Shown piece by piece: positions 2,502 through 12,504 of a stretch of DNA of 43,336 nucleotides. The notes beneath the pieces were generated by a model. It was given only the letters and a program-made list of their open reading frames with translations. It was not told the DNA's origin and did no database searches. This DNA is from a virus (lineage: Duplodnaviria > Heunggongvirae > Uroviricota > Caudoviricetes). The position numbers and the translations under genes were made by a program. Positions within the stretch are counted from its first letter, which is position 1; each line of letters opens with the position of its first letter. Location of the stretch: positions 1-43,336 of the IMG/VR virus record IMGVR_UViG_2554235189_000011; one strand, 5' to 3'.

Positions 2502-3287
2502 ATGACTACAGCACTCGCAACGCTGGCTGGGAAGCTGGCTGAACGTGTCGGCATGGATTCTGTCGACCCACAGGAACTGATCACCACTCTTCGCCAGACG
2601 GCATTTAAAGGTGATGCCAGCGATGCGCAGTTCATCGCATTGTTGATCGTCGCCAACCAGTACGGCCTTAATCCGTGGACGAAAGAAATTTACGCCTTCC
2701 CTGATAAGCAGAACGGCATCGTTCCGGTGGTGGGCGTTGATGGCTGGTCCCGCATCATCAATGAAAACCAGCAGTTTGATGGCATGGACTTTGAGCAGGA
2801 CAATGAATCATGTACATGCAGGATTTACCGCAAGGACCGTAATCATCCGATCTGCGTTACCGAATGGATGGATGAATGCCGCCGCGAACCATTCAAAACC
2901 CGCGAAGGCAGAGAAATCACCGGACCGTGGCAGTCGCATCCCAAACGGATGTTACGGCATAAATCCATGATTCAGTGTGCCCGTCTCGCCTTCGGATTTG
3001 CTGGTATCTATGACAAGGATGAAGCCGAGCGCATTGTCGAAAATACTGCATACACTGCAGAACGTCAGCTGGAACGCGACATCACTCCGGTTAACGATGA
3101 AACCATGCAGGAGATTAACACTCTGCTAATCGCCCTGGATAAAACATGGGATGACGACTTATTGCCGCTCTGTTCCCAGATATTTCGCCGCGACATTCGC
3201 GCATCGTCAGAACTGACACAGGCCGAAGCAGTGAAAGCTCTTGGATTCCTGAAACAGAAAGCCACTGAGCAGAAGGTGGCAGCATGA
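2502..3287 (+). CDS. bet: Bet (Red-beta single-strand annealing protein)
   Basis: 261 aa, near-identical over its length to recalled lambda Bet. Confidence 0.92.
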
Positions 3288-3964
3288 CACCGGACATTAT
3301 CCTGCAGCGTACCGGGATCGACGTGAGAGCTGTCGAACAGGGGGATGATGCATGGCACAAATTACGGCTCGGCGTCATCACCGCTTCAGAAGTTCACAAC
3401 GTGATAGCAAAGCCCCGCTCAGGAAAGAAGTGGCCTGACATGAAAATGTCCTACTTCCACACCCTGCTGGCTGAGGTTTGCACCGGTGTGGCTCCGGAAG
3501 TTAATGCTAAGGCGCTGGCCTGGGGAAAACAGTACGAGAACGACGCCAGAACCCTGTTTGAATTCACTTCCGGCGTGAATGTTACTGAATCCCCGATCAT
3601 CTATCGCGACGAAAGTATGCGCACCGCCTGCTCTCCCGATGGTTTATGCAGTGACGGCAACGGCCTTGAGCTGAAATGCCCGTTTACCTCCCGGGATTTC
3701 ATGAAGTTCAGGCTCGGTGGTTTCGAGGCCATAAAGTCGGCTTACATGGCCCAGGTGCAGTACAGCATGTGGGTGACGCGAAAAGATGCCTGGTACTTTG
3801 CCAACTATGACCCGCGTATGAAGCGTGAAGGCCTGCATTATGTCGTGGTTGAGCGGGATGAAAAGTACATGGCGAGTTTTGACGAGATGGTGCCGGAGTT
3901 CATCGAAAAAATGGACGAGGCACTGGCTGAAATTGGTTTTGTATTTGGGGAGCAATGGCGATGA
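3284..3964 (+). CDS. exo: Exo (Red-alpha 5'-3' exonuclease)
   Basis: 226 aa [40 protein letters not shown]...; start overlaps bet stop. Confidence 0.92.
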
Positions 3965-4143
3965 AGCATCCTCACGATAATATCCGGGTAGGCACGATCA
4001 CTTTCGTCTACTCCGTTACAAAGCGAGGCTGGGTATTTCCCGGCCTTTCTGTTATCAGAAATCCACTGAAAGCACAGCGGCTGGCTGAGGAGATAAATAA
4101 TAAACGGGGGGCTGTATGCACAAAGCATCTCCTGTTGAGTTAA
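3955..4143 (+). CDS. lambda orf60a-like small protein
   Basis: 62-aa [16 protein letters not shown]... immediately after exo. Confidence 0.6.
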
Positions 4144-4307
4144 GAACGAGTATCGAGATGGCACATAGCCTCGCTCAAATTGGAGTCAGGTTTGTGCCAA
4201 TACCAGCAGAAACAGACGAAGAATTTCATACGTTAGCCACATCCCTTTCACAAAAGCTGGAAATGATGGTGACGAAAGCAGAAGCAGATGAGAGAGACCA
4301 GGTATGA
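4116..4307 (+). CDS. lambda orf63-like small protein
   Basis: 63-aa ORF in conserved position. Confidence 0.55.
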   Translation: MHKASPVELRTSIEMAHSLAQIGVRFVPIPAETDEEFHTLATSLSQKLEMMVTKAEADERDQV

Positions 4308-4383
4308 CAACCACTGAATGCATTCTTCTGGCAGCGGGCTTCATATTCTGTGTGCTTATGCTTGCCGACATGGGACTTGTTCA

Positions 4384-6888: not shown

Positions 6889-7098
6889 ATGGGGCTGGAT
6901 TGCGTGCCTATATCAACCTACTGCCGCGACGCGGGAGAAACGGTTGATGCCGTTAACAAACGGATACAAAGAGGAATATGGAAAGAAGGGGTTCATGTAT
7001 TAAAAGTCGATGGAGTTAAAGAACGCTGGGTCGACTTAATAGAGGTTTCAAAATGGGCAAGAAAGAACAAGGATTATTATCTCTGCCAAGAGGAGTAA
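6889..7098 (+). CDS. xis: excisionase-like DNA-binding protein
   Basis: 69 aa immediately upstream of and overlapping int; ...RIQRGIWKEGVHVLKVDG... Xis-like motif. Confidence 0.65.
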   Translation: MGLDCVPISTYCRDAGETVDAVNKRIQRGIWKEGVHVLKVDGVKERWVDLIEVSKWARKNKDYYLCQEE

Positions 7099-8231
7099 CT
7101 ATTCGTAAGCATAAAACTGCTTCAACACTAGTTATCACTTTCACATATAAAGGGGTTCTTTGCAGGGAGCCCCTGTCTCGGCTTGAGGCAAATACACGTG
7201 GTATTAAATATGCTGAGCGCCTGCTAGGGGAGATACAAAATCAGATCGCCAGCGGAACGTTTGAATATGCGAAATATTTCCCCAGTTCCAAAAAACTGGA
7301 GTTATTCGGTATAGTAAAGAAAACCAAAAATATTAAGTCCTATCTTGATGAATACCTGAAAATTTGCATGAACCGCAATCTGTCGCCGTCAACCATTGGC
7401 GGTTACGAAAAATGTATATCAGCACTATCAGAGCTACATAAACTACATGTAACAGAATTGACGCCTGCGGTACTAAAAAATTGGATAGCCAGCCGAAAAA
7501 CTAAGCTGAAAACAATCAGGAATAACCTGTCATTTCTGCGCAGCGCCATTGATGAGGCTGTAACTGATGGCCTGTTGACTATTAACCCGGTAACTCTTGT
7601 CAGCGCCAGCCGGTATCACGTGGTCGACAGTAAACCGAACGCCGACGATTACGAAGTTGATCCGTTTGCGCCTGCGGAAACCAGTGCCATATATCAGCAC
7701 TGCAAGTATCAGGAATGGCAGAATCTGTTCCGCTTCGCCTTCAATACAGGGCTACGCAGCTCTGAGCTATGCGCATTACGTTGGACCGATATCGACTTTA
7801 TAGGTAATACAGCGCACATACAGGCGGCCAGTGTCGTAGGGGTACTTAAAGGCACCAAGACAAAAGCCGGTACCCGTAAGGTGGAGCTGAACAGTGAGGC
7901 TCTGGCGGCCCTGCAGGCGCAGAAGCAATACACCTTTATGAAAAGTGAGTTCATATTCAGCGATCCGAAAACGGGAGATCCCTGGACGAACGCCGACGCT
8001 ATCCGTAAAAAAGCATGGGTGCCGACCCTAAAAAAAGCTGGTGTGCGCTACCGTAACCCGTACCAGACGCGCCACACATTCGCCACCAGACACATTAGCC
8101 AGGGTGTAAACCTTTTCTGGCTTGCCGGGCAGATGGGGCATAAGGGGCCGGAAATGCTGTTCCGCAATTACGGTAAATACCTGGCTGAATACGACGGGAA
8201 AACCGCAATGGAAGCTGGAATGAAGAATTGA
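7053..8231 (+). CDS. int: tyrosine integrase
   Basis: 392 aa; C-terminal catalytic region with R...HxxR...Y (RHTFATRHISQG...GHKGPEMLFRNYGKY). Confidence 0.9.
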   Translation: MGKKEQGLLSLPRGVTIRKHKTASTLVITFTYKGVLCREPLSRLEANTRGIKYAERLLGEIQNQIASGTFEYAKYFPSSKKLELFGIVKKTKNIKSYLDEYLKICMNRNLSPSTIGGYEKCISALSELHKLHVTELTPAVLKNWIASRKTKLKTIRNNLSFLRSAIDEAVTDGLLTINPVTLVSASRYHVVDSKPNADDYEVDPFAPAETSAIYQHCKYQEWQNLFRFAFNTGLRSSELCALRWTDIDFIGNTAHIQAASVVGVLKGTKTKAGTRKVELNSEALAALQAQKQYTFMKSEFIFSDPKTGDPWTNADAIRKKAWVPTLKKAGVRYRNPYQTRHTFATRHISQGVNLFWLAGQMGHKGPEMLFRNYGKYLAEYDGKTAMEAGMKN

Positions 8232-8244
8232 TTTGAAGAAAAAA

Positions 8245-8267
8245 CCCGGCAAATGCCGGGTCTTTTT
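8245..8267. terminator. bidirectional rho-independent terminator between convergent int and 8273-9040
   Basis: CCCGGCAAATGCCGGG hairpin flanked by A-tract and T-tract. Confidence 0.7.
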
Positions 8268-8272
8268 GATGG

Positions 8273-9040
8273 TTATTCTGTCGCGCCACCTATCGAAACA
8301 TAATCATGAAATTGATCGTCAATGAGTCGGTCCTTACAGATAACATGTACAATGTGACGACAACAGTTTTCATCATCATACGCACGACCCCAGCGAACAA
8401 TCTCATCTACAGACAGATCATTCGCACTCCATGGCAAAGTACCTGAAACACCACGCGCACCTGGACCAAGTATGTCCATAAATTTCTTCGTGCGTGAATT
8501 GTAGATCCGTACCTCGGCAATTCGAATGATGCTACTAGCCCAAAGAGCACCACCGGCAATACTTTGAATGTTATCGCAGATGAGAAACTCATGCTTTCGC
8601 GCAAGCATTTTATAGATCTCACGCGCCAAACCTGCTGATTGGAAATCCTGTGCGATAACAGCGCTTTTCACTTGCTTTCCGGTCATCATCTGACCGTTCT
8701 CTTCGATAAAATTAAAGTCGTTGAACTGTATACGACCTATTCTTATCGTTTTGTTATCGTCTACCATATCAAGACCCAAGAGGGTATTGACCAGATCCTG
8801 CATTGGAACCTTCGAATCAAGAAGGTCACTGCCATAGTCTAAAAAAAAGTCGTCGGTGGAACATCCCAGTTGATACACATCCAAGTAGTACTGAAACTCA
8901 CCAGAACTGACAATGTACTCATCAGCCCTCAGTAAGCCAGCCTCGGCAGTGAAAAAATAGAATGACTCAATAAGACGTTTTTCGCCAAATGGCGTGATGT
9001 TCAAGTCCTTGTTATATGAAGGTATTAACGCAGGAGCCAT
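8273..9040 (-). CDS. hypothetical protein (distal gene of int-att cargo operon)
   Basis: 255-aa ORF; no confident motif; lower GC than phage core. Confidence 0.6.
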   Translation of the reverse strand: MAPALIPSYNKDLNITPFGEKRLIESFYFFTAEAGLLRADEYIVSSGEFQYYLDVYQLGCSTDDFFLDYGSDLLDSKVPMQDLVNTLLGLDMVDDNKTIRIGRIQFNDFNFIEENGQMMTGKQVKSAVIAQDFQSAGLAREIYKMLARKHEFLICDNIQSIAGGALWASSIIRIAEVRIYNSRTKKFMDILGPGARGVSGTLPWSANDLSVDEIVRWGRAYDDENCCRHIVHVICKDRLIDDQFHDYVSIGGATE

Positions 9041-9051
9041 TCAGCAACCTT

Positions 9052-9393
9052 TTAATGGTAGTTAATTTCCCTGTAGTTCTTCTGCATGTATAGAGCAATT
9101 GCCGCTTCAATTTTCTTCAGCAGATTACTGCTTACATACTGAGGATACTGATCTGCTGGCTTCACAACATAGCGCAATTTTTCTTTGTTCATGGCGATCT
9201 CAGCGAACGGGATCACGTCACCGTCACGAACCTCATTGTTCAATGTCACAATAAACAGCTGACGTGCCGGGGAGACACGATCACTCAGTCTTCTCACGAA
9301 GAACTCGTTTGCTGTGTTTGAGTCAACAAAAGAACTGACGAGTTGAGTCCGACGCTCAATCGTCTGTATCGATCTTCTCGCTACTGTTCTCAT
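9052..9393 (-). CDS. hypothetical protein (proximal gene of int-att cargo operon)
   Basis: 113-aa ORF 11 nt upstream of 8273-9040, same strand. Confidence 0.6.
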   Translation of the reverse strand: MRTVARRSIQTIERRTQLVSSFVDSNTANEFFVRRLSDRVSPARQLFIVTLNNEVRDGDVIPFAEIAMNKEKLRYVVKPADQYPQYVSSNLLKKIEAAIALYMQKNYREINYH

Positions 9394-9721
9394 GCTAGTC
9401 TCCTCAACACTTCACTAGCTGTGCAGTGAAGGTACAAAAAGCCACTGATGATAACAGCGTCATCAGTGGCCCTTGATGGTGATAACCGCAGTTATCTAAA
9501 TAGTATGATATTACCTTACGGGTAATTCTTCAACGATTGCTCTGAATTGAATAGTCTTGAAGTGCTATGAACAGCACAAAACAGCGCTAATCACCGCCCC
9601 AGTGGCGCCTAAACACTTCAAAATGTTGGACAGAATCAGGACGTTAGAAGCACTACAATATGCACGTAAAATGCACGTGAGGTATTTTAAATTAGAAAAA
9701 TCATTAATATTCAATTGGTTA

Positions 9722-9763
9722 AGAATTTTTCGGATACGGGTTCAACTCCCGCCAGCTCCACCA
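9722..9763 (+). other. att core: partial copy of the ssrA (tmRNA) 3' end
   Basis: AGAATTTTTCGGATACGGGTTCAACTCCCGCCAGCTCCACCA matches the recalled E. coli ssrA 3' end with a few mismatches; no tmRNA body upstream. Confidence 0.75.
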
Positions 9764-9893
9764 ATCATGATTGGACGGTGTAAGGACAACACCAACAAAA
9801 ACAGGAAGTTAGCAGTCTCAGCAGGACACCGACCAGACGGTGAGGAGACAAAAAAGGATACGCAAAGGAGCCGCGGCTCTCAAGTGTGAAAGA

Positions 9894-9928
9894 AGCCCGC
9901 AAATTGCGGGCTTTTTTATTGATCAGTC
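9894..9928 (+). terminator. rho-independent terminator
   Basis: AAGCCCGCAAATTGCGGGCTT hairpin followed by TTTTTTATT. Confidence 0.7.
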
Positions 9929-9972
9929 AACAATAAACAGTAACCGAATGAGAATTTAATAAGGATATTCAT

Positions 9973-11004
9973 ATGGAAGCTACTGTGGATTCGATTGATT
10001 TTCTGATCCGTAGTGAAGATGATTTTCTAAACTTTCTGGAAGAAATGAAAGCCCGAGAGGGGCTTGATTCTAAAGAGTTTATTTTCCCTAACGTAAAGTT
10101 TGCAGGCTGGCCATCCTTAGACATAAATGTTAAAGGAGAGCGGTATCATTCATCAATTACATCAGCAATGTTGTTTGGTATGTCAATGCTCAACGAGGAG
10201 ATACAGCGGGCGTTTGCAACCATACGATACGGATCGCAGAATCTTCAACGCTTGACTAATGAAGACAAGCAACGACTTGATATAAATTTTAAAATTAGCG
10301 AAGGTTCTAGTGATGCGGAAGGCACCACTGACAAGATCATCAACGCAGTAACTGATTTTTTGCGAGATACTATGTCTGGACTGAACGGCTGGCAGAAAAT
10401 GCTTGTTATAATCACAATGGTTGGCGCGGCCAGCACATGTGGTTATCACTACATTTCAGAAAATGCCGTAACAGAAAGACATGCAACTGATCGGCAGGTT
10501 GAAATTGCGAAAACCACATCCGATGGCATAAACAAAGCCATAGAAGCAACATTAGATTATAAAATCTATGGGAAATCAGCGATTAGCGATAAAGTTACTA
10601 GTCACGGACAAGCAGGTAAAAGTGCTTTAGTGAAGCAATTAGCTGCTGATCCTACTGTCGAAACCGTGACTTTAGGAAATGAGAAACTAACACGACAAGA
10701 CCTAAATACCTACAACAGCCGACAATCTGTAGATAGAGAACGTAAAGAACGAACTGATATATTTTCCATCAAAGGTGTAACCAGAACAGGGCCAACAAAT
10801 CAGGATATTAATATTAACGTTGTTAGGGTCTCTAATGACGAATGCTTCACAATCAAAGCTTCAGCTGATGTTATCACCCAAGATGAGTTGACAGCTATTG
10901 TTGACGCTTTGTCAAACAACTCTCATATTAAAATCAGTTACTTAGAGGTAATTGAAAAGGGTGCTGTTTCTATAGGTCAGTTCAACACTATTGTTTCAGA
11001 ATAA
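9973..11004 (+). CDS. hypothetical protein with central hydrophobic segment (low-GC cargo)
   Basis: 343-aa ORF; AAGGA RBS; hydrophobic stretch WQKMLVIITMVGAASTCGYHYI. Confidence 0.6.
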   Translation: MEATVDSIDFLIRSEDDFLNFLEEMKAREGLDSKEFIFPNVKFAGWPSLDINVKGERYHSSITSAMLFGMSMLNEEIQRAFATIRYGSQNLQRLTNEDKQRLDINFKISEGSSDAEGTTDKIINAVTDFLRDTMSGLNGWQKMLVIITMVGAASTCGYHYISENAVTERHATDRQVEIAKTTSDGINKAIEATLDYKIYGKSAISDKVTSHGQAGKSALVKQLAADPTVETVTLGNEKLTRQDLNTYNSRQSVDRERKERTDIFSIKGVTRTGPTNQDININVVRVSNDECFTIKASADVITQDELTAIVDALSNNSHIKISYLEVIEKGAVSIGQFNTIVSE

Positions 11005-11055: not shown

Positions 11056-11400
11056 ATGTCCTTAAAGTATGCACATGAAAAATTTCATACTGCAGTACTT
11101 ACTCTTGCGGGCCATGGAAGTATTCAAGAACGCTTGATTAATTCGTATGTTTTTAGCCTTGGGCATCTTAAAACAGCCGATGATATTCCAAATGCCTTAC
11201 AAAGCAGGTTCGATGAATTATGTAAGGAACTGACTAAGTTTGATGCCACTGGCGATGAGGGGCGAGTTCAAGCAACAGTATCAAAACTTAACGATTTCGA
11301 GATCAATAAACTGATCGAAGATATTGTCAGTCTTAACGATGATATTTGCATGAAATTGGCTCTGACGGATGAGACTTACCAAGACATACACCAAAGTTAA
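11056..11400 (+). CDS. hypothetical protein (low-GC cargo)
   Basis: 114-aa ORF downstream of 9973-11004. Confidence 0.55.
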   Translation: MSLKYAHEKFHTAVLTLAGHGSIQERLINSYVFSLGHLKTADDIPNALQSRFDELCKELTKFDATGDEGRVQATVSKLNDFEINKLIEDIVSLNDDICMKLALTDETYQDIHQS

Positions 11401-11895: not shown

Positions 11896-12450
11896 TTATT
11901 TATCTCCTGCCGGAAACCTCTGATACAAAGTCGATACGCCAACATCATAGATAATCGCAACTTTCTGGCGCGGAACTCCTGATGCAATTAATCGTCCGGC
12001 TTGTGCCCATTGTTCTGGTGTAAGTTTGGGACGACGTCCACCAATTCGTTCCTGTGCGCGAGCAGCTTCCAGTCCAGCTTTTGTTCGTTCAACAATCAGT
12101 TCTCGTTCCATTTCAGCCAGGGCCCCCATCACATGAAAGAAAAAGCGCCCCATTGGGGTACTGGTATCAATTGAATCCGTCAGACTACGAAAGTTGATGC
12201 CTCGTTCGCGCAACTCCTCCACCAGCACGACAAGATGCCGCATACTGCGCCCCAGCCGGTCCAGTTTCCAGACCACCAGCGTGTCACCTGCCGATAATGT
12301 CCTGAGCAGTTTTTTCAGTCCCGGCCTTTCGGACTTTGTACCGCTTATCTTGTCTTCAAAAATCAGCTCGCATCCTGCACAGTTCAGCGCATTACGTTGT
12401 AGATCTGTGTTCTGGTCATTTGTTGATACGCGTACATAGCCAATAAGCAT
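11896..12450 (-). CDS. pin: serine recombinase, DNA invertase (Pin/Gin/Hin/Cin family)
   Basis: Internal start MLIGYVRVSTNDQNTDLQRNAL...; 184 aa; close to recalled e14 PinE. Confidence 0.9.
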   Translation of the reverse strand: MLIGYVRVSTNDQNTDLQRNALNCAGCELIFEDKISGTKSERPGLKKLLRTLSAGDTLVVWKLDRLGRSMRHLVVLVEELRERGINFRSLTDSIDTSTPMGRFFFHVMGALAEMERELIVERTKAGLEAARAQERIGGRRPKLTPEQWAQAGRLIASGVPRQKVAIIYDVGVSTLYQRFPAGDK

Positions 12451-12504
12451 GGTAGATCCCCCTGACAAAAGCAGGAATGATGCCATTTGCTCGTTATTTC
12501 TGCA

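Follow-up and report, generated by a model that had tools for sequence, protein, structure and literature searches.

Organization of the locus

The stretch analyzed here (the window) comprises the 43,336 nucleotides of IMG/VR virus record IMGVR_UViG_2554235189_000011, a Caudoviricetes sequence that is a 100% match to part of the Escherichia coli JNE132847 chromosome. Its subject is a two-gene cassette lying between the integrase gene (int) of a lambdoid prophage and an ssrA-type attachment (att) core, with both open reading frames (ORFs), of 113 and 255 aa, running opposite to int. An earlier note, made from the letters of the window, had singled out this pair, and the analysis confirms it at the coordinates given below, where the acronym GNAT stands for GCN5-related N-acetyltransferase, pI for isoelectric point and SD for Shine-Dalgarno sequence.

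8273-9040, minus strand: 255-aa ORF, acidic (pI 4.8) protein of predicted GNAT fold (WP_000035091.1, phrog_3307)
9041-9051, minus strand: 11-nt spacer between the 113-aa and 255-aa genes, containing an SD-like AAGG
9052-9393, minus strand: 113-aa ORF, basic (pI 9.8) partner (WP_001261060.1, phrog_2594)
7053-8231, plus strand: tyrosine integrase of the lambdoid prophage, given as context (ORF and RefSeq annotation)
8239-8266, no strand assigned: bidirectional intrinsic terminator serving int (plus) and the cassette (minus), an inverted repeat with an A-run and a T-run
9672-9763, plus strand: phage-borne 3' part of ssrA including the att core at 9739-9763 (Rfam tmRNA match, exact core)
8204-9616, no strand assigned: exchangeable cargo segment, at its full extent in the prophage family (blastn against sister prophages)

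The ssrA 3' end, GGTTCAACTCCCGCCAGCTCCACCA, occurs once in the window, at 9739-9763, against a chance expectation of 0, and sits at the end of a partial tmRNA match reported by Rfam at 9672-9763 (E 5.5e-5). Isolated PhiR12 phages contain the cassette segment as far as the att site at 99.2% identity, and their genome end coincides with the ssrA/att region of the window; because these phages carry the segment up to att, the cassette genes can be assigned to the phage and not to the host. RefSeq lists both products as hypothetical proteins. The two ORFs are nevertheless more than chance reading frames, since each has a PHROG family (1e-59 and 9e-26) and tens of homologues conserved at the protein level; phrog_3307 and phrog_2594 are themselves PHROGs of unknown function. 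At the downstream end of the cassette, the bidirectional terminator described in the earlier note proves to be real: its 13-nt arms (8239-8251 and 8254-8266) are 92% complementary, are flanked by an A-run and a T-run, and separate the 3' ends of int and the 255-aa gene.

Exchange and mobility of the cassette

That the pair represents extra cargo inserted between int and att, as had been supposed, is borne out by sister prophages in which int is ~93-94% identical and the att flank is the same, with 8204-9616 replaced by unrelated genes. The borders of this slot were defined by blastn of window positions 7000-10000 against two such prophages, L055 (E. coli A41) and L056 (E. coli O55:H7 CB9615), in which homology to the window stops at 8201/8203 and restarts at 9617/9656. 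The slot of L055 (2722-4544) holds three genes, for a HATPase_c_2-like, a STAS-like and a 189-aa protein, and that of L056 (3231-4154) a single gene for a 307-aa DUF4760 protein; the three-gene set is reminiscent of partner-switching modules. Neither the DUF4760 gene nor the HATPase_c_2/STAS-like trio matches a PADLOC model, which leaves the slot a putative defence hotspot. The cassette itself is found in only 10 of 5,426 complete E. coli genomes, every copy having at least 99.5% identity, and a closely related integrase and att flank are present in many other E. coli genomes.

Homologous pairs recur in varied surroundings. They lie between the major tail protein and tape-measure genes in siphovirus-type prophage tail modules, most of them in Yersinia, within the baseplate module of a Pantoea myovirus, and after the lysis genes and immediately before parA in phage-plasmid SSU5 and its E. 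coli relatives; a metagenomic contig (L054) likewise has the pair adjoining a ParA-like gene. Plasmid copies are carried by small Acinetobacter Rep_3 plasmids, some of 6.2 kb and one the 10-kb OXA-24 plasmid pMMD of A. baumannii. Elsewhere the pair stands beside an integrase, in an integrase island with a Zeta toxin gene ~3 kb downstream, or as a bare, phage-free chromosomal insertion between pgl and ybhC/bioA in Pseudescherichia-type chromosomes. Distant homologues of the 255-aa gene are further found on 375 PLSDB plasmids, of which most are non-mobilizable and 100-120 kb in size.

The segment thus has its own promoter and terminator, is present or absent between conserved flanks, and occurs in unrelated phages: it is an autonomous, horizontally mobile two-gene operon of ~1.4 kb, a phage "moron", and the expectation of a self-contained two-gene module is upheld by its movement between phages and plasmids. 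In being a discrete promoter-gene-terminator unit set between conserved phage genes of unrelated phages, and in occupying an int-att slot that takes alternative cargo, it resembles lambda bor and lom or the P2/P4 defence hotspots. It differs from such morons in having a terminator within the leader, after the promoter, and in residing on small plasmids and phage-plasmids as well.

A divergent GNAT fold in the 255-aa protein

The 255-aa protein displays the GNAT core fold, in the order β1-α1-α2-β2-β3-β4-α3-β5-α4-β6-β7. A QxxGxA string in it (QSAGLAREI, residues 134-142) had been flagged speculatively as GNAT-like, and it corresponds to motif A (Q/R-x-x-G-x-G/A): Q134-S-A-G137-L-A139 lies between predicted β4 and α3, reads R-G-A-G-L-A in the close-family consensus, and has G137 and L138 invariant in 29 close homologues, with the glycine kept in about two-thirds of the distant members. 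Motif B is represented by S160-x-x-G163-x-x-L166-W167. A profile search of 1.84 billion representative proteins returned only 56 relatives of the family, the weakest matches being bona fide Pfam Acetyltransf_1 proteins (E 1e-5 to 1e-4, profile positions 91-190) that align across the motif A/B region; hhalign of the family against two Acetyltransf_1 proteins gave an 89% probability and a common S/C-D-N-x-Q-S/T-x-x-G-x-x-L-W-A, which we take to be GNAT motif B. Residues Q123, Y143, D156, Q159, W167, Y180 and W204 are invariant throughout the wide family (to ~22% identity), and the extreme N terminus is almost invariant at M1, P3, K11 and L13, though modelled as disordered. The protein is acidic family-wide (pI 4.2-5.9).

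The curated Pfam Acetyltransf_* models do not recognize the protein, which has no Pfam match at E <= 1, and sequence searches of solved structures with the profiles of both cassette families returned nothing meaningful. The fold, the position and conservation of motif A and the weak profile links to Pfam GNATs nonetheless bear out the earlier speculation, and we regard it as highly probable that the 255-aa protein is a highly divergent GNAT-fold enzyme with plausible cofactor motifs; we infer that it is catalytically active and that its donor is an acyl-coenzyme A (acyl-CoA). A Cys/His metal site formed by C60, C155, C227 and H229 was considered and discarded, as these residues, though invariant among close relatives, lose their conservation in the wide family. 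Two large multidomain proteins, P0110 (1884 aa) and P0114 (1429 aa), contain a GNAT domain with the same SDxxQTxxGxxLWA motif, one of them with a weak ParB-like nuclease match as well, and may be polyvalent mobile-element proteins with an effector domain related to this family.

The 113-aa partner and the obligate pairing

The 113-aa protein is modelled as five antiparallel strands forming a β-meander, followed by a long C-terminal helix, and its family conserves the motifs R-S-x-Q-T-I, FIVT, P-F-A-E and Q-Y-P; no lysine is invariant. A Foldseek search of the model against BFVD gave no match at E <= 0.001. An internal duplication, in which the small protein would be homologous to part of the large one, was rejected at an hhalign probability of 0.7%. 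The pair differs from two-domain or pseudo-dimeric GNAT enzymes, such as Hat1 (an N-terminal plus a GNAT domain), with which the small protein has a match, FemX, MshD and ATE1, in that its two parts are separate polypeptides with no detectable mutual homology.

In every complete locus examined (~50 loci, from 100% to ~22% identity) the small gene stands directly upstream of the GNAT gene, and the divergence of the two genes is correlated across loci. In the distant homologues L049, L051, L054 and L059 the two genes overlap by 16-29 nt, an arrangement that suggests translational coupling. Seeming exceptions with a disrupted small gene beside an intact GNAT gene, in L011 and L012 (45 aa) and in E. 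coli M8 (81 aa), are gene-calling artefacts, as the small genes of all three are intact in DNA alignments. There is thus very little doubt that the two proteins form an obligate unit, and they presumably do so as a physical complex.

This strict linkage bears on one alternative, in which the GNAT would be a resistance or immunity enzyme inactivating a small-molecule toxin (an aminoglycoside, streptothricin, or a microcin C-like or other peptide-nucleotide antibiotic) and the cassette would be beneficial cargo. The matches that speak for it score no better than those to any other GNAT. The GNAT chemistry it invokes is that of enzymes that act alone, whereas the cassette enzyme is tied to its partner; NCBIfam, including its antimicrobial resistance models, has no match, the PLSDB resistance prediction on pMMD flags only blaOXA-24 and not the pair, and the strong expression locks described below are ill suited to a constitutive resistance gene. 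We consider this explanation improbable.

Promoter and leader of the operon

Upstream of the small gene the following elements were located, the first of them by promoter scan.

9505-9533, minus strand: sigma-70-like promoter, TTGAAG-17-TATCAT, 9/12 match
9511-9525, minus strand: inverted repeat TTACC-N5-GGTAA in the promoter spacer
9481-9496, minus strand: perfect 16-bp palindrome GATAAC-N4-GTTATC, just downstream of the -10 element
9436-9470, minus strand: intrinsic-terminator-like hairpin with T5 in the operon leader, ~45 nt upstream of the start codon
9400-9431, minus strand: SD GAGGAG (9405-9400) and adjacent hairpin CTTCACT...AGTGAAG (9431-9410)

Two hairpins in this region had been taken as a bracket around the operon. 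Both exist, yet they are not a mere bracket: they belong to a conserved promoter and structured leader of the cassette. Leader alignment places the -35 and -10 elements at conserved positions in cassettes inserted in unrelated phage contexts, which indicates that the cassette brings its own upstream region. The palindrome at 9481-9496 may act as an operator or fold as a hairpin at the 5' end of the RNA; homologous leaders contain equivalent ATAAC-N4-GTTAT palindromes, with symmetrical changes among them (e.g., ACAACC..GGTTGT). The leader terminator consists of a perfect 11-bp stem (9441-9451 and 9460-9470) with an 8-nt loop, followed on the minus strand by T5. A set of 17 diverse leaders retains its stem, in which 4 of 11 pairs show compensatory changes, and nearly all of them have the T-run. 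Between the T-run and the SD, folds of individual leaders place a hairpin in most homologues, often pairing with the SD itself, and in the window an upstream CCTTC is able to pair alternatively with it. The aligned leaders contain no conserved -10 element between the terminator and the start codon and leave too little room there for a promoter, and for the leader Rfam finds nothing beyond terminator-type matches below threshold and the partial tmRNA.

The operon therefore probably combines its own promoter with locks in the leader, such that transcripts from the cassette promoter would mostly end after ~60 nt and translation of the read-through mRNA would also be damped. In SSU5-type leaders three hairpins are conserved and no T-run follows, so that a structured leader is family-wide and the terminator clade-specific. 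The SSU5-type hairpins (L045 ~3410-3594, L054 1-95, L059 ~2960-3133) are short and GC-rich (e.g., CTCGTAGCC..., CCCCGATGGGG, GCCG...CGGC), stand directly before an SD AAGGTGGA, and could constitute a distinct cis-regulatory RNA. A type III toxin-antitoxin reading of the leader, of the ToxIN kind, was rejected: it has a terminator but no tandem repeats, only distinct palindromes.

In SSU5 and in every tail-module context the cassette points the same way as the late genes, and in the window, as judged from annotated orientations, it would come to lie downstream of the late operon after circularization across attP. We speculate that antiterminated late transcription could then override the leader terminator.

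Heavy restraint at both transcription and translation also characterizes Mu com-mom, as does a small upstream gene paired with a ~240-aa GNAT-fold enzyme near the phage genome end, and raises the alternative of a nucleic-acid modification system in which a small regulator controls a GNAT that would use aminoacyl-tRNA or another non-CoA donor to modify DNA and so evade restriction. The similar gene sizes, order and end-of-genome position, the tight control including a masked start region, the degenerate motif A of some distant clades, and the precedent of Mom itself, a GNAT using Gly-tRNA (PMC13219725), all speak for such a role. Relationship to Mom is nevertheless not apparent in sequence or specific structure (PDB 8bv8): aligned with Mu Mom by hhalign, the family reaches a probability of only 1%, and Pfam PF25680, the model of a family marked by R111, S124, D149 and R151 and a helix-turn-helix-like insertion, recognizes Mu Mom at 2e-75 and not the 255-aa protein. 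Moreover, the partner has no Com-like zinc finger and is thus not a translational activator of that type, the cassette also resides on non-phage plasmids, and an acidic enzyme fits DNA or tRNA binding poorly. A Mom-like function is accordingly very improbable.

A variable T tract in the GNAT gene

Natural variation was noted at a homopolymer within the GNAT gene.

8841-8848, minus strand: T8 homopolymer in codons 65-67 (F-F-L) of the GNAT gene (alignment against PhiR12_5, T-run lengths, split tblastn matches)

All five PhiR12 phages and two IMG/VR contigs have T7 in place of T8, so that their GNAT gene is frameshifted after residue 66. The small gene is intact at these loci, and the opposite pattern is seen at none. 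The asymmetry agrees with an enzyme that can be dispensed with or is selected against, as a toxin would be; the tract itself could be a slippage-prone on/off site or a sequencing artefact.

A frameshifted GNAT gene beside an intact small gene makes it unlikely that the small protein is a toxin neutralized by the GNAT. Such a reversed, type VII-like module, with the small basic protein as toxin and the GNAT as an enzymatic antitoxin acylating it, would accord with a highly conserved, basic small protein facing an acidic enzyme, and enzyme antitoxins are known from type VII systems. It predicts, however, that viable phages and lysogens with a frameshifted GNAT and an intact small gene should not exist, their combination being lethal, and it finds no invariant lysine in the small family. 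We give it very little credence.

A proposed toxin-antitoxin-like module with a GNAT effector

The evidence assembled above leads us to propose that the cassette is a toxin-antitoxin (TA), addiction or abortive-infection-like module with a GNAT effector, to which we assign a probability of roughly 0.4. The proposal draws on genomic context and architecture: plasmid rep/par, moron-slot and integrase-island settings, a small-gene-first order, and restrained expression are typically combined in this class, which makes such a role the most likely one. In the proposed mechanism, the small protein would be made first and, through translational coupling, in step with the GNAT, which it would bind and neutralize or regulate, possibly also autoregulating the promoter via the palindromes. 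The GNAT would be the effector, acylating an essential cellular or phage target, and the leader terminator and the SD-masking hairpin would serve as two locks holding expression down. Such a module would stabilize the phage or plasmid that carries it and/or abort infection by other phages. Toxicity, neutralization and biological role are thus all putative attributes of the pair.

Known GNAT toxins set a precedent for such an effector. In its working the cassette would most resemble the type II modules of GNAT toxins and ribbon-helix-helix (RHH) antitoxins, TacAT, AtaRT, ItaRT and KacAT, with which it shares its gene order. These systems comprise tRNA-acetylating toxins with DUF1778 antitoxins. 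In the cassette, by comparison, the upstream protein is not of the RHH/DUF1778 type, having no Pfam match and a β-meander plus helix, and the enzyme has no sequence match to TacT or AtaT and resembles them at the level of the fold only. At 240-255 aa, with N- and C-terminal extensions and an acidic character, it also departs from toxins of ~160-180 aa, and the cassette differs further in the terminator and SD-masking hairpin of its leader.

Several observations weigh against this interpretation. No defence or TA family recognizes either protein: PADLOC-DB v2 gave 0 families for both at E <= 1, and Pfam and NCBIfam, TA families included, gave no match, so that the model-based check proposed in the earlier note came back negative. 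The small protein has no RHH/DUF1778, Xre or other known antitoxin fold, and in several comparisons it is more conserved than the enzyme (e.g., 68% vs. 48%), which is unusual for antitoxins. Since tRNA-acetylating toxins use basic surfaces, the uniformly acidic GNAT makes a TacT-like tRNA target doubtful, and the replacement of the motif A glycine in some distant clades means that acyl-CoA use is not certain family-wide. The leader terminator is limited to the close clade and absent from SSU5-type leaders, and the T8 frameshift could reflect a miscall of the homopolymer in sequencing, or a change that arose once and was inherited. It is the partner without a known antitoxin fold, the acidic enzyme and the missing TA/defence model matches that hold our estimate to about 0.4. 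A literature search on PhiR12, the protein accessions, the PHROG identifiers, the SSU5 locus tags and the pMMD ORFs found nothing.

In the main rival reading of this evidence, the cassette would encode an acyltransferase of two subunits that is not toxic and serves the mobile element by modifying a specific protein of host or phage in lysogenic conversion, superinfection exclusion or counter-defence, where the small basic protein would be a substrate-recognition or adaptor subunit and the prophage leader terminator would limit expression to the late phase. A GNAT fold with intact motifs agrees with this, as do the conserved N terminus that is modelled as disordered and suggests a docking motif, the co-orientation with late genes, and the tolerated loss of the enzyme by frameshift. 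The nearest precedent is AcrVA5, a GNAT anti-CRISPR of phage-host conflict that acetylates Cas12a and, like the cassette enzyme, is encoded by a mobile genetic element; it is, by contrast, a single small protein without sequence similarity to the cassette and is absent from the structure matches listed. On the other side, the Rep_3 plasmid, par-adjacent and phage-free chromosomal sites are easier to reconcile with selfish or addictive behaviour than with a late function specific to phages, the cassette has its own promoter in every context, SSU5-type leaders have no terminator, and there is no similarity to known anti-defence proteins. On balance we think this explanation doubtful.

Returning to the TA-like module, one may go further and ask whether the pair founds an unrecognized family of two-component GNAT conflict modules, in which an acidic, extended GNAT effector is joined to a conserved, basic and partly GNAT-like partner, is kept nearly silenced by the promoter-proximal terminator and the masked ribosome-binding site, and serves addiction or abortive infection by acylating a target other than the aminoacyl-tRNAs of TacT and AtaT. 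Such a family would extend over SSU5-type phage-plasmids, Acinetobacter Rep_3 plasmids and the moron sites of prophages. We offer this as a tentative and rather unlikely extension.

Flanking prophage regions

A 110-aa ORF at 9557-9889 (plus strand) spans the att core and the ssrA fragment and, because it overlaps tmRNA-derived sequence, is almost certainly spurious. Directly to the right of the att core begins a second, Mu/P2-like prophage of myovirus type (9764-43336), so that two prophages stand in tandem at ssrA. Its landmarks are genes at 9973-11004 and 11056-11400, and pinE at ~11897-12451, followed by minus-strand tail and baseplate genes; the segment 9737-9920 is similar to the attP/tmRNA-pseudogene flank found in phages LLS and Ayreon. 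Immediately past the junction, two genes (343 aa and 114 aa) that neither Pfam nor PADLOC recognizes hold the att-adjacent cargo position of this second element. In the early-left region of the lambdoid prophage, an IS3-family transposase (~3154-4367; 8154-9367 in L001) lies beside a truncated regulator gene, and as several genes near it are annotated as frameshifted or partial, the lambdoid prophage may be defective.

Implications

If the cassette does serve in TA or abortive infection, the repertoire of acetyltransferase toxins would be extended by a new partner fold and, probably, by a new target. Such a role would also account for the conserved "hypothetical" gene pair that adjoins the partition locus in SSU5-type phage-plasmids, elements often met in clinical Klebsiella, Enterobacter and E. 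coli, and that also occurs on Acinetobacter OXA-24 plasmids, and would provide a concrete cargo candidate for the int-att hotspot of ssrA-integrating lambdoid prophages. The leader, with its promoter, terminator and masked SD, offers a compact example of how mobile elements nearly silence a potentially harmful enzyme, a silencing possibly lifted only by antiterminated late transcription. Should the pair prove non-toxic, it still defines a new subfamily of GNATs, one whose accessory subunit is obligatory.

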